A DNA stretch of 64,000 bases, from positions 349 through 64,348 of the forward strand of contig JAFRBS010000027.1 of the NCBI GenBank assembly GCA_017404725.1. Direction: 5' to 3'. The notes under the pieces were generated by a model. That model was not told the DNA's origin and ran no database searches. It worked only from the letters and a program-made list of their open reading frames with translations. Below are positions 11,664-17,718 of the stretch, in pieces. The position numbers were made by a program, and so were the translations under genes. Position 1 is the stretch's first letter. Each line of letters begins with the position of its first letter. This stretch comes from Candidatus Saccharimonadota bacterium. GTDB lineage: Bacteria > Patescibacteriota > Saccharimonadia > Saccharimonadales > Saccharimonadaceae.

Positions 11664-12833
11664 TTAAAATTTGATAATTCCGCCGCCGATGCAGGCGTCG
11701 CCCTGGTAGAAAACTGCAGATTGGCCGGCGGCGGGACGCTTGATTTCCTTTTTAAAAATCAGTTTGTTCCCTTCTAGGGTCGCTGGGATTAGCGGAGCGC
11801 GATGCCGAAGGCGCACGTCGATGCGAACGGGGCCTGTAGGCCTTCGGCCTTCCGCGTCCCAAGGGGCGGTCGCGTTGTATCGCCCATCCGACTCGCTCGC
11901 CTTCGGCTCGGAGCCGGCGGGACCCCTCAACGCGTCACCCGTTCGCTTGATGATATCTTCCAAATCGAGCTCGGTTGTCCAGAGGTCTTCCGCGTTCAAG
12001 TTGCGGGAGACGTAGACAATGTTTTTTGTAATATCTTTTTTGACAACGTAATACGGTAAGCCGGCGTCGGCACCTTTATTGGCAGAGCCAAGATCAAGGC
12101 CGTGGCGCTGGCCGATGGTGTAGAAAATCGCGCCTTCATGAGTACCTAGTTCGTGGCCGGTTTCAATTTCGATAATCGGGCCGGGATTAGGCTCAAAATA
12201 TTCTTTCAAAAAATCCTCCATGCCGACTTCACCGACGAAACAGACGCCCATCGACTCTTTTTTGTAAGCATTATCAAGGCCTTTTTCTTCGGCGAGTTTT
12301 TTGACGTCTTTTTTTAGCATATCGCCGATTGGGAAAAGAGTGTGGGCAAGGGCGTCTTCGCTGATGCGGTAGAGGAAGTAGGTCTGGTCTTTGTTCTCGT
12401 CGGCTGCTTTTCTCAGACACGGGTGGGGCGAGATCCTGGCGTAGTGGCCGGTTGCGATTAAGTCCGCACCCTGTTCGCGGGCGGTTTCGTAGAAAAGTTT
12501 GAATTTGATTTCCTGATTACACATGATGTCTGGGTTCGGGGTGCGGCCGGCTTTGAACTCGGAGAGCATGTAGTCGACGACTTTCTGTTTATACTCAGTT
12601 TCGAAATCAAAAACTCGAAAATCTATGCCGAGCTTTACGGCGACACGCTTCGCGTCGGCCAAATCTTCCGCCCAGGGGCATTTCATCCCGGGGAGATCCT
12701 TTGACCAATTCTTCATATAAACGCCAACAACGTTATAGCCCTGCTCTTTTAAAAGCACAGCGGAAAGCGAAGAGTCGACGCCACCAGACATGCCGAGAAA
12801 AACGGTCTTAGGCACAGCGGCGGGACTAGGCAT
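11664..12833 (-). CDS. mnmA: tRNA 2-thiouridine(34) synthase, with an in-frame insertion of about 38 aa
   Basis: PP-loop GMSGGVDSS, ATGHYAR, and C-terminal GQSAVFY. The extra TGDALRGPAGSEPKASESDGRYNATAPWDAEGRRPTGP is encoded by 11800..11945. Confidence 0.9.
   Translation of the reverse strand: MPSPAAVPKTVFLGMSGGVDSSLSAVLLKEQGYNVVGVYMKNWSKDLPGMKCPWAEDLADAKRVAVKLGIDFRVFDFETEYKQKVVDYMLSEFKAGRTPNPDIMCNQEIKFKLFYETAREQGADLIATGHYARISPHPCLRKAADENKDQTYFLYRISEDALAHTLFPIGDMLKKDVKKLAEEKGLDNAYKKESMGVCFVGEVGMEDFLKEYFEPNPGPIIEIETGHELGTHEGAIFYTIGQRHGLDLGSANKGADAGLPYYVVKKDITKNIVYVSRNLNAEDLWTTELDLEDIIKRTGDALRGPAGSEPKASESDGRYNATAPWDAEGRRPTGPVRIDVRLRHRAPLIPATLEGNKLIFKKEIKRPAAGQSAVFYQGDACIGGGIIKF
11800..11945. 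repeat. Composite GC-rich palindromic element in mnmA (core copy 11863..11940 plus an adjacent CCGAAGG/CCTTCGG hairpin module)
   Basis: The core GGGGCGGTCGCGTTGTATCGCCCATCC...GGACCCCTCAACGCGTCACCC aligns at about 80% with the ligA copy, in the same orientation and frame. The upstream module resembles the alaS inner hairpin. Confidence 0.8.
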
Positions 12834-15627: not shown

Positions 15628-17718
15628 TCAAGCGTTTTCGAGCAATTTCAGATACTCTTTTTCGTCAATTACCGGAATGTTCAGCTTTGCGGCTTTGTCA
15701 GTCTTAGATTTTCCAGGTTTTTCGCCGACGATCAGGGCGGTCGTAGTTTTCGTTACAGATTTCGTGATCGTGGCGCCGAGTTGCCTTAGCTTATCTTCGG
15801 CTTCTTCCCTGCCCGCGCTGGCCAAGGTCCCAGAGATAATATAACTTTTTCCGGCGAGCGGGGCGTCTTTTAGGTCCTCAAAGGTCGGTTTTACCCCGAG
15901 TTCGTCTAATTCTTCTAGAAGTTTCAGATTATCTTCGTCAGCGAAATAGGCAAGAATGGATTCCGCGACGATTTTGCCAATGTCGGGAATTTCTAGTAAT
16001 TCTTCCTCAGTTGCATTTTTTAAATTCTCTATAGATTTAAATTCGTTCGCAAGCGTCGTTGCGGTCTGAGCGCCGACGTGGCGAATACCAAGCGCGGTGA
16101 TAAACTTATTTAGCGGCGCGGTTTTTGAGGCTTCTAGGGCATCGGTCAGATTTTTCGCAGAAAGTTCAGCAAAACGCTCGAGGCTTGCGATTTTTTCAGG
16201 TTTTAAGCGGTACAAATCGGCGATGGAGCCTACGAGCTTCGCGTCAACCAGCGCGGCGACATTTTTTTCGCCAAGACCTTCGATATTTAAGGCCGGCTTA
16301 CTGGCGTAATATTCTATCGCGCGCTTTAAAACTAAGTCTGGAGTTTCGCCCTTTACGCGATAAACTACCTCGCCGGCCGGGCGCTCAAATTCAAGCTCTG
16401 GGTATTGAGCCTTCAGAGCCTCCTCGTAGCTAAACGGTTTCGCATCTTCCGGGCGCAGAGTTTTCAAAACTTCCTTAACCTGGGGGATGATGTCTCCGGC
16501 TTTATAAATAATCACCGTGTCGCCGATGCGAACATCGAGGCGAGCGATCTCGTCGGCATTATGGAGCGAAGCGTGTTTTACCGTCGAGCCGGCGATTTGG
16601 ACCGGGTCGAATATCGCGACAGGAGTAGCGGCGCCGGTTCGGCCGATCGAGATAACTATATCTTTCACCTTTGTCGTCGCCTCTTCGGCTGGGAATTTGA
16701 ACGCGACGGCGCCGCGTGGGGTCTTCCCCACGATGCCGAGTTTCGCGTAAATTTTGCGGTCGTTGATTTTGATGACCATGCCGTCAGTATTAAACGGCAA
16801 GTTCCCGCGAGTTTCGCCAAGATGCTGAATTTCCTGAAAAACTTCCTCTAGGCTTCCGAAAACTTTGTCCTGTTTCGAAGTCTGGAAGCCAAATTTGCGC
16901 AGAGCCTCGTAAGCGGCGTGGTGGGTTTCTAAGTCTGGCGTGACTAAATCGTAGGCCATGAACTTCAGAGGCCTTCCGGCGGCGATTTTCGGATCGAGCT
17001 GGCGAATCGAGCCGGCGGCGAGGTTTCTCGGGTTCGCGAAAGGCTTTTCGCCCATGCGCGCTTGCTTTTCGTTCAATTCGTCAAAGTCTTTTTTGAAGAT
17101 GACGATTTCACCCCGGACCTCCACTCGATCAAGGACGGGTCCTGTCGCGTCGTATCGCCCATCCACCCCACTCGCCTGCGGCTCGGGGGCGGCGGGGCCC
17201 CTCGACGCGCCACCCGTCCTTAGCCGCAGTGGTACATTTGAAATCGTCTTCACGTTCATCGTGACGTCTTCGCCGACGAGGCCGTCGCCGCGAGTGACCG
17301 CGCGAGATAAAATACCGTTTTCGTAGTGAAGACTACAGGCCAGCCCGTCCATTTTGATGTCGGTAAAATACTGGAACTTTGCCGCGGGGACGAGTTTCTG
17401 ATCGCGAGAAACCCAGTCCTTAATTTCCTCCTCTGAAAAAACATCGGCAAGCGAAATCATCCGAGTTTCGTGCGTGACTTTTTCGAACTTGTCGAGCGGT
17501 TTTCCGGCGACGCGCTGGGTCGGCGAATCTGGCGTGATTAAATCTGGGTAAGCTTCTTCGAGCTGCGTGAGCTCGTGTTTTAAGCTGTCTGCCGCCGCCT
17601 CGCTCATGGTCGATTCATCTAGAACATGATAATGGTAGCGATAATCGTTAATCAGCTCGCGAAGTTTCAAAATCCGCTGCTCGGCTTCATCGTGGCCTAG
17701 CTTAGTCGTCATAGTCAA
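15628..17718 (-). CDS. ligA: NAD-dependent DNA ligase, with an in-frame insertion of about 29 aa
   Basis: Adenylation motif KMDGLA, OB fold, HhH repeats and a C-terminal BRCT domain. The extra [29 protein letters not shown] lies just before the conserved VEVRGE. Confidence 0.95.
17131..17221. repeat. GC-rich palindromic element (core 17137..17215) in-frame in ligA
   Basis: GGGTCCTGTCGCGTCGTATCGCCCATCCACCCCACTCGCCTGCGGCTCGGGGGCGGCGGGGCCCCTCGACGCGCCACCC, with terminal inverted repeats AAGGACGGGT / ACCCGTCCTT. Confidence 0.9.

Follow-up and report, generated by a model that had tools for sequence, protein, structure and literature searches.

In-frame hairpin DNA in core genes of a Saccharibacteria genome: a probable non-autonomous mobile element with a stem base found in many phyla

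The Rickettsia palindromic elements (RPEs), which form families of ~150 bp, occur in-frame in many housekeeping genes that are unrelated to one another, in a small genome, and add a peptide judged to be compatible with the fold of the host protein. A 2024 review of MITEs, short for miniature inverted-repeat transposable elements, describes this in-frame insertion as unusually frequent behavior (PMC10969869). Repetitive extragenic palindromes (REPs), which are 20–40 bp long with stems of 8–9 bp, also occur inside genes, many of which function in replication or repair, and Xanthomonas recB has been found to carry different REPs at nearly one position; the phyla listed for REPs exclude Patescibacteria, and the word ‘Actinobacteria’ is absent from that text (PMC3733652). 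The MITEs ERIC, RU-1/2/3, Coxiella QMITE1 and those of Anabaena are small hairpin repeats that occasionally form in-frame fusions with open reading frames (ORFs) (PMC10969869; PMC2759123). We analyzed 64,000 nucleotides of a Candidatus Saccharimonadota genome (assembly GCA_017404725.1, contig JAFRBS010000027.1, positions 349 to 64,348; hereafter ‘the window’) and identified a 78–84 nt element of 73–78% GC, one copy of which lies in-frame in each of mnmA, a NifS-like cysteine desulfurase gene and ligA. We estimate a probability of roughly 65% that the three belong to a mobile DNA of the REP/RPE/MITE kind that is non-autonomous, forms hairpins and is kept in-frame in tolerant loops.

The three copies and their host genes are as follows.

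11664..12833, minus strand: host mnmA, 389 aa
11863..11942, plus strand: mnmA copy, with a decayed 5′ terminus (GGGGCGGTCGCG), 3′ end CGCGTCACCC and peptide GDALRGPAGSEPKASESDGRYNATAP
11790..11862, no strand assigned: GC-rich segment beside the mnmA copy, which encodes WDAEGRRPTGPVR and continues into conserved MnmA sequence
12826..14073, minus strand: host NifS-like cysteine desulfurase gene, 415 aa
13737..13820, minus strand: NifS-like copy, in the opposite orientation, with the GGGTCCTG strand in host mRNA sense and peptide RGPDALYRPSTPARLSARGAAGPLNAPP
15628..17712, minus strand: host ligA, NAD-dependent DNA ligase of 694 aa, 100% identical to the Candidatus Saccharibacteria protein P0001
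17132..17220, plus strand: ligA copy, with core GGGTCCTGTCGCG...CGCGCCACCC at 17137–17215

A search profile made from the three copies and run over the window matched exactly these three loci (11863–11942(+), 17137–17217(+) and 13738–13819(−); E 2e-22 to 5e-20), and the 21-nt core pattern of the element had no match in 100 shuffles. The ligA copy and the reverse complement of the nifS copy agree at 75 of 79 aligned bases (95%, or 89% with gaps counted), ligA and mnmA copies are 83% identical, and nifS and mnmA copies 88%. GC content of the copies is 0.73–0.78, as against ~0.44–0.53 in 2-kb blocks of the window. Pfam assigns the host proteins to LigA, class-V aminotransferase (NifS-like) and MnmA, and all three ORFs stay open across the element, which is represented in both orientations. 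In ligA the GGGTGG strand is present in host mRNA sense and the insert amounts to 26 extra amino acids. A sequence-only reading of this DNA had claimed a palindromic element, richer in GC than its surroundings, in-frame and in both orientations in mnmA, the desulfurase gene and ligA. The profile matches and read-through ORFs bear this out, the sequence and peptides it quoted are present in the window as given, and its identities of about 90% and 80% agree with the measured 89–95% (ligA/nifS) and 83% (ligA/mnmA).

The nifS (13737–13820) and ligA (17137–17217) copies together make up a ~94% inverted repeat of 79–84 nt, 3.3 kb apart, which could allow the segment between them to invert or the copies to undergo gene conversion. 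The GC-rich segment at 11790..11862 has only moderate hairpin potential, and ~13 further residues are missing there in the orthologue of a related contig (L137). It is possibly, though uncertainly, the remnant of a second, older insert.

Each copy folds into one long imperfect hairpin, with a minimum free energy (MFE) of −35 to −61 kcal/mol and z of −2.6 to −6.1 relative to shuffles, taking the better-folding strand. Since the whole element is a single hairpin, what the sequence-only reading called terminal inverted repeats are pairing ends that do exist, not as separate repeats but as the hairpin's own base. In ligA this base extends out to 17132–17220, where an outer stem is formed by AGGACGGGT (17132–17140) and ACCCGTCCT (17212–17220). 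That the element is open on both strands holds in all six frames of the ligA copy, whereas the other copies have one or two closed frames; because few stops are expected at 75–80% GC, such openness is largely a by-product of composition and is uninformative.

Scanning the window for GC islands and strong local folds revealed an insert in uvrB, and a relative of the element lies in alaS.

8354..10351, minus strand: host alaS, encoding a short AlaRS of 652–665 aa, depending on the choice of start codon
9016..9094 (core 9021–9086), plus strand: alaS relative, with termini GGGGTCCTGACGCGG...CCGCGCCACCCC shared with the three copies
1452..3566, minus strand: host uvrB, 704 aa
2929..3059, no strand assigned: uvrB insert, a 131-nt branched hairpin of a different family that adds ~44–49 aa

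The alaS relative is 55–61% identical to the other three copies and has a different interior with a perfect stem of its own (z ~ −5). We place four copies of the window in a superfamily defined by the termini GGGTCCTGNCGCG ... CGCGCCACCC, which are exact in ligA, nifS and alaS and present with 5′ decay in mnmA. All four show strand asymmetry in folding that stems from G-U pairs; we considered this as a sign of a functional RNA strand and dropped the idea, as it fails across other subfamilies. The uvrB insert is closed by a perfect stem of 18–19 bp (GCGGGGGCTTTTAGGTCT / AGACCTAAAAGCCCCCGC; MFE −87/−88). The window thus contains five in-frame hairpin inserts in core genes, all in its first 18 kb, and the scan for GC islands and local folds found no hairpin insert at 18–64 kb, about half of which is prophage. 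The ‘five copies or relatives’ of the sequence-only reading accordingly become three copies, one relative in alaS and, as the fifth, an unrelated-looking hairpin in uvrB.

Solved homologues have short connectors at all five insert sites. The LigA insert falls between residues 159 and 164 of 1B04, the UvrB insert between residues 161 and 165 in solved structures of UvrB, the NifS-like insert between residues 77 and 91 of 4R5F (~23 extra residues relative to IscS-type structures) and the MnmA insert between residues 288 and 311 of 2DER (~31 extra residues relative to solved MnmA), while AlaRS has ~18–24 extra residues relative to the E. coli structure 3HXU. In an AlphaFold model of the window’s LigA (mean predicted local distance difference test score (pLDDT) only 64), residues 167–192 have a pLDDT of ~30 and are flanked by confident strands. 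Both the connectors and the low pLDDT in LigA fit the proposal that the inserts occupy surface loops. Judging from their reading frames, the inserts are probably translated into disordered loops rich in Gly, Pro, Ala, Arg and Ser.

Orthologues of the host genes differ in whether, and with what, these loops are filled. LigA orthologues have a base length of ~663–669 aa, and about one quarter of the 120 best matches have at least 680 aa, a few of them owing to N-terminal extensions. In 20 aligned LigA orthologues, internal extra residues occur at one site only, between PLRL and xPxxVEVRGE. The site is empty in P0006, P0012, P0038 and P0110, and the P0006 DNA runs through it uninterrupted, encoding RGENIPEKLE. 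The LigA inserts of the window, P0003, P0004, P0045, P0027 and P0010 are long hairpins in 6/6 cases, with the hairpin base at the insert boundaries, yet they differ greatly in sequence and some have AT-rich outer stems. That of P0004 is of the same family as the window copy and in the same orientation. In P0045 and P0027, a ~70-nt core is 88% identical and lies on opposite strands relative to ligA, while the flanking gene DNA is 68–69% and the proteins are 73% identical. The ‘empty’ P0005 allele keeps CAGGACCCGTCC, the last 12 nt of the element, a footprint that could have been left in an allele like that of P0003 by the deletion of 69 nt at GC microhomology.

Comparable variation is seen at the other loops. 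NifS-like orthologues have a base length of 379–388 aa, and many reach 396–439 aa through variable inserts at the loop that follows NLAF(S/T)xx. L136 is from a different species, whose NifS-like protein shares 72% identity with that of the window. At this loop it has a hairpin of the same superfamily, inverted relative to the window copy. The L136 mnmA has a second copy of L136’s own subfamily at a site other than the window’s, and at the window’s mnmA site it has a third hairpin, AT-stemmed, with z ~ −9. MnmA of L137 is short, and thus empty, at the window’s insert site. Species-specific subfamilies, sometimes inverted, therefore occupy the same loops in different species. The sequence-only reading would have been undermined if all orthologues had carried the extra residues without nucleotide similarity between genes; ligA, NifS-like and mnmA orthologues do not all carry them, and copies in different genes share sequence.

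The ligA copies of the window, P0003 and P0004 are 77–79% identical and the flanking gene is 74–81% identical; divergence like that of the flanks fits vertical descent at the ligA site. The 95% identity of the window’s ligA and nifS copies in turn points to copying or gene conversion in this lineage after its split from the P0003/P0004 relatives. Within the window’s subfamily, 10 of 31 stem pairs have compensatory changes between copies, and the outer stem reads AGGAC/GTCCT in the window and ACGGC/GCCGT in P0004.

Two other features of LigA sequences were observed. In P0027, P0052, P0072, P0107 and P0120, low-complexity, lineage-specific N-terminal extensions of 25–50 residues occupy alignment columns 1–50. 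A related Saccharibacteria contig (L122) encodes two divergent ligA genes in opposite orientations (789–2792(−) and 10001–12007(+)), and each gene has a separate set of LemA, peptidase M48 and Metallophos neighbors. The contig has either undergone a large inverted duplication or is a chimera of two strains.

We searched a species-representative genome collection with the pattern GGTCCTGNCGCG-N40-70-CGCGCCACCC and identified at least 120 loci. Among the matches listed, ~105 of 123 are true hairpins, overwhelmingly from Thermoleophilia/Solirubrobacterales (Actinomycetota); other listed sources are Aminicenantes, Gemmatimonadota, Eisenbacteria, Omnitrophota, Rokubacteriota, Binatia, one Spirochaetes metagenome-assembled genome (MAG) and a few others. 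Matches in Streptomyces, Nonomuraea, Massilia and similar genomes are not hairpins and were set aside as chance. The base has a common architecture, with a variable outer clamp, GGGT/ACCC, an asymmetric loop (CCTGN versus CC), CGCG/CGCG and a subfamily-specific interior, and the interiors split into several subfamilies. Five flank positions on each side, which lie outside the search pattern, are paired in 87–93% of copies with many double changes, so the unit includes the outer clamp stem. For the structure as a whole, pairing holds in 77% of cells versus 34–47% in slid controls, and 0 of 500 shuffles reach the observed covariation score.

Coding calls were based on an analysis of GC content at the three codon positions (GC1, GC2, GC3) of ORFs that span the hairpin, which is approximate in high-GC DNA and replaced an earlier GC3-based classifier that was too strict and called nothing. 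Of the ~105 listed hairpins, ~39 are within long ORFs whose GC3>GC1>GC2 order is typical of coding sequence; 17 share the orientation of the ORF and 22 oppose it. One of these, L032, belongs to the N-terminus, which is disordered, of an ATPase that looks ParA-like when its translation is inspected by eye. Many Solirubrobacterales copies are located directly after stop codons or before a Shine-Dalgarno-like GGAG.

Two of the Solirubrobacterales loci, L022 and L048, have different hairpin subfamilies at the same intergenic position between two genes, which indicates that orthologous sites are reused outside coding regions too. The 3′ arm of the hairpin continues into the Shine-Dalgarno-like GGAG, and the downstream ORF begins MLIGVLAIQG, which we take to be PdxT-like. 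In lower-GC Aminicenantes MAGs (L001, L045, L067, L073, L076, L091, L093), the GC-rich core tips a ~150-nt palindrome with AT-rich outer arms of 16–20 bp (e.g. GCAATTCTTTTTCCGG...CCGGAAAAAGAATTGC), and one MAG has at least six near-identical copies; this architecture parallels the AT-stemmed inserts of Saccharibacteria ligA, mnmA and uvrB. A scan of viral contigs with the termini pattern gave one match only, and phage carriage of superfamily hairpins thus appears rare.

The window’s elements resemble RPEs in that palindromic repeats lie in-frame in unrelated protein-coding genes, many of them housekeeping genes of a small genome, and add a peptide judged compatible with the fold. The likeness to RPEs drawn by the sequence-only reading is apt as an analogy of behavior and not of membership. 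RPEs are Rickettsia families of ~150 bp (PMC10969869), whereas the units here are 66–89 nt (131 nt in uvrB), 73–78% GC and from Saccharibacteria, and their stem-base signature, unlike RPEs, is common to many phyla; this separation relies on published descriptions of RPEs.

REPs and REPINs are similar in having a GC-rich hairpin, a short conserved tag beside the stem and an unpaired tail, and the reuse of the same loops and the presence of inserts in the repair and replication genes ligA and uvrB also recall REPs. The differences lie in size and in tag sequence. REPs are 20–40 bp long with 8–9 bp stems (PMC3733652), whereas units of 66–89 nt here have ~30 paired positions (~30 bp) per arm plus the outer clamp. 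One strand reads G-GTGG-CGCGG...stem, and the position of the GTAG tag beside the CGCG stem is taken by GTGG (ligA, nifS, alaS, P0004, L136) or GTGA (mnmA, P0003), which is similar and not identical. On the other strand the stem ends in CCA, which is the tail consensus of CGTC REPs; this tail (CGCG-CCA-CCC) is the only match to the CGTC super-family, as the tag position is CTGNCGCG and the stem starts with CGCG, where that super-family has A/T pairs.

Bacterial MITEs are also small, non-autonomous hairpin repeats that occasionally lie in-frame in host ORFs. They differ in being defined by the terminal inverted repeats of a parent insertion sequence and by target duplications, neither of which was found here, and an intragenic location is the exception for MITEs and the rule in this window. 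Among organellar sequences, yeast mitochondrial DNA has palindromic GC-rich clusters (var1 is one gene that contains them) that are optional at fixed coding sites and spread to the same site in other genomes, and the mitochondria of Magnusiomyces have ‘byp’ inserts. Both are GC-rich palindromic mobile inserts within genes of a lower-GC genome and in this recall the element; ribosomes skip byp, which breaks the frame, whereas the inserts described here keep it. The intragenic tigRNAs of TIGR-Tas systems are frame-keeping hairpin DNA in coding, disordered segments, including in the candidate phyla radiation (CPR), and are the nearest conceptual parallel there (bioRxiv 10.64898/2026.09.09.750476). 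They are guide arrays of the box C/D type, arranged in tandem and found only in the tas gene itself, in contrast to single copies without conserved box C/D that are dispersed over housekeeping genes. The behavior of the element is thus like that of RPEs and intragenic REPs, but membership in no known class is established.

Searches of existing collections agree with this. Rfam 15 covariance models gave no relevant match at E<=1–5 in the window region or six loci. An ALIL pseudoknot match within ligA coding sequence (15859–15952(−); 28.5 bits versus a gathering score of 50, E 2.7e-4) is most likely chance. By eye, the conserved loop has no consensus matching signal recognition particle (SRP) RNA, tRNA-like, attC, k-turn or box C/D elements, and Rfam and ARAGORN lend no support to such a resemblance. 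A full-text literature search found no such elements described in Saccharibacteria/Patescibacteria or Thermoleophilia, and the hairpin family is apparently undescribed. The earlier claim that no family is known for such genomes holds for Rfam and the literature searched, with the correction that the element is not private to them and belongs to a multi-phylum superfamily.

Several results weigh against mobile DNA as the source of the inserts. No pair of termini flanks a gene as an autonomous parent in ~1 Mb of fetched loci, where a search for unpaired half-sites and for termini 0.13–4 kb apart gave only diverged hairpins or chance matches. A scan of the window and 139 loci for the HUH and Y..NP motifs of transposases, including REP-associated tyrosine transposases (RAYTs), found none; this is a weak test. 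RAYTs are usually single-copy in a genome. No direct repeat of the kind expected from the target-site duplications of MITEs recurs consistently across the five sites of the window or when filled and empty ligA alleles are compared, and element flanks are complementary rather than direct repeats. The elements are not polymorphic in the sampled population of five assemblies, so current activity is unsupported, and the collections hold no close relatives (>90% identity) that differ in presence or absence, the nearest LigA being 86% identical. No Saccharibacteria contig is among the matches listed for the superfamily pattern, and a metagenome scan with a pattern specific to the window’s subfamily interior gave two chance matches in unrelated coding DNA. 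The description of the element as highly invasive in the sequence-only reading goes beyond what copies in a single 64-kb window support. The NifS-loop length variants of L137 and L138 are not hairpins, so the hairpin rule is not absolute. Compensatory changes in old orthologous copies are not predicted for a purely dead selfish insert and need an added assumption, either correction of one arm by the other or selection, and translation of the inserts is deduced solely from the open frame.

We weighed five other explanations, which in descending order of weight are old immobile inserts, captured host hairpins, a structured RNA, removal from the transcript or during translation, and artefact. Each loop may have been hit once in an ancestor, with vertical descent, arm-to-arm correction, in-place flipping and gene conversion since then and no transposition for a long time. 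The divergence of orthologous ligA copies (77–79%) alongside that of the flanking gene (74–81%), a codon position that is constant within ~2 codons in distant lineages, and the failure to find population polymorphism, transposase or target duplication would all be expected, as would opposite orientations at one site, from in-place inversion of a palindrome. We nonetheless consider this account unlikely: sites differ by species, with mnmA site 1 filled in L136 only, the ancestral-type ligA site is empty in four relatives (P0006, P0012, P0038, P0110), the P0045/P0027 core is 88% identical versus 68–69% in protein-constrained flanks, and the initial spread to unrelated genes still requires mobility. 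Rather less probable is that REP-like, nuclease-resistant snap-back DNA of Actinomycetota hosts was patched in by microhomology-dependent illegitimate recombination, without a transposase of its own. Saccharibacteria in culture grow on Actinobacteria, and natural competence has been reported for them (PMC10633639). A 73–78% GC element in a ~49% GC genome, the abundance of identical termini in Thermoleophilia/Solirubrobacterales among the matches listed, the lack of a transposase in the motif scan and a resemblance, by eye, of the empty ligA site GCGTGGCGAG to the element end GGGTGGCGCG also speak for capture. Yet the interior of the window’s subfamily was found in no other organism searched, the same termini are also present in phyla that are not known to serve as hosts, and copies within the genome are closer to each other than to anything foreign, which argues for spread or conversion inside the genome.

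A functional RNA or DNA module, acting in mRNA stability, pausing or protein binding and only incidentally in coding sequence, would account for a stem-base motif that is invariant across phyla, for covarying stems and for the many Solirubrobacterales copies after stop codons or before GGAG (e.g. L022, L048). Coding copies have no orientation preference (17 versus 22, and both in the window), host genes are functionally unrelated, orthologues without the element are common, no Rfam family matches and the better-folding strand varies by subfamily; we regard such a module as improbable. Bypassed GC-rich mobile inserts occur in yeast mitochondria and offer a precedent for removal of the segment before or during translation, either as a religated hairpin intron or by ribosomal bypassing, so that the protein is unaffected; the coincidence of hairpin base and insert boundary is also like that of structure-defined introns. 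However, the five inserts of the window, like each of those examined in orthologues, are in-frame and without stops, neither of which removal needs, and a length divisible by three is expected by chance in only one third of cases. Inspection of ligA by eye also shows no pair of take-off and landing codons followed by a stop. Bypassing and hairpin introns are rejected as highly implausible, since the frame is kept in every insert. Chimeric joining of GC-rich reads into low-GC genes during assembly or binning, a possibility raised with the sequence-only reading, is suggested by the striking contrast in composition and is effectively refuted. Five independent assemblies, from different samples and assemblers, are 99.96–100% identical to the window over 6–12 kb and carry every element unchanged, related copies occupy the same loops in other species, and the frame is always kept.

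A mobile, non-autonomous hairpin is therefore our preferred explanation. Directly in its support are the repetition of the element, its hairpins, preserved frame and loop sites, presence and absence among orthologues, greater similarity within the genome than between species, and spread over many phyla. The unit would be one long imperfect palindrome with a fixed stem base, new copies of which would appear at unrelated places in either orientation. We infer that mobility proceeds via single-stranded DNA and a trans-acting enzyme, which would probably recognize a single-stranded hairpin intermediate. Recognition at the DNA level is argued by the lack of orientation bias relative to transcription (17 versus 22, and likewise in the window), and a specific trans-acting protein by the invariant asymmetric loop at the stem base. 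By analogy with REPs and RAYTs, this may be a Y1/HUH-type enzyme (PMC3733652). In a gene-dense Saccharibacteria genome most landing sites would be coding, and selection would spare copies that keep the frame, lack stops and lie in short surface connectors. Tolerant loops would be refilled repeatedly across lineages by the locally current subfamily, and copies would be lost by short-homology deletion. Arm-to-arm templated correction of quasi-palindromes is established in E. coli genetics, and pairing in old copies may come from this process rather than from selection.

A more far-reaching version of this proposal is speculative and, to us, doubtful. The stem base would be the site of one conserved hairpin-specific enzyme system that moves elements in many phyla and inserts them preferentially into existing hairpins or the same loops, in a homing-like manner, with the Saccharibacteria copies acquired from or exchanged with high-GC Actinomycetota hosts. 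Homing-like insertion would explain both the reoccupation of sites in either orientation and the complementary flanks. If true, mobile DNA of a new class would be crossing phyla and routinely remodeling essential proteins.

The rest of the window contains a prophage of ~31 kb (21183–52206) integrated into tRNA-Gly(GCC). A perfect repeat of the last 47 nt of this tRNA gene (its 3′ end, 52130–52176) lies at 21183–21229. Its integrase gene (51159–52025) adjoins the tRNA, and genes for terminase, portal/MuF, tape-measure, tail-fibre and CHAP lysin proteins lie inside. None of the GC-rich hairpin inserts is located in this region. Five copies of a ~37-nt motif, AAGCACCCGTAGGAAATTATCAT, all on the plus strand (26083, 29841, 39999, 40400, 45721), are probably phage promoters or regulatory sites. 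Sequences of the ATTGACTTTTTnGC...TATAAT type upstream of genes (10350–10386, 50580–50616, 52048–52084, 3571–3603) look like the consensus promoter of the organism.

Genomes of Saccharibacteria and other Patescibacteria are very small (~1 Mb) and thought to be streamlined. Hairpin DNA in ligA, uvrB, alaS, mnmA and a desulfurase gene would mean that selfish or semi-selfish DNA still remodels essential proteins in such small genomes, and makes the inserts a source of lineage-specific disordered loops. These inserts inflate apparent protein divergence and can mislead alignment and structure prediction, and they could help to trace the history of strains or the exchange of DNA between epibiont and host. 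The stem-base signature, common to many phyla, indicates a common and undescribed recognition mechanism, and makes it possible to search for the enzyme through phylogenetic co-occurrence with the motif.

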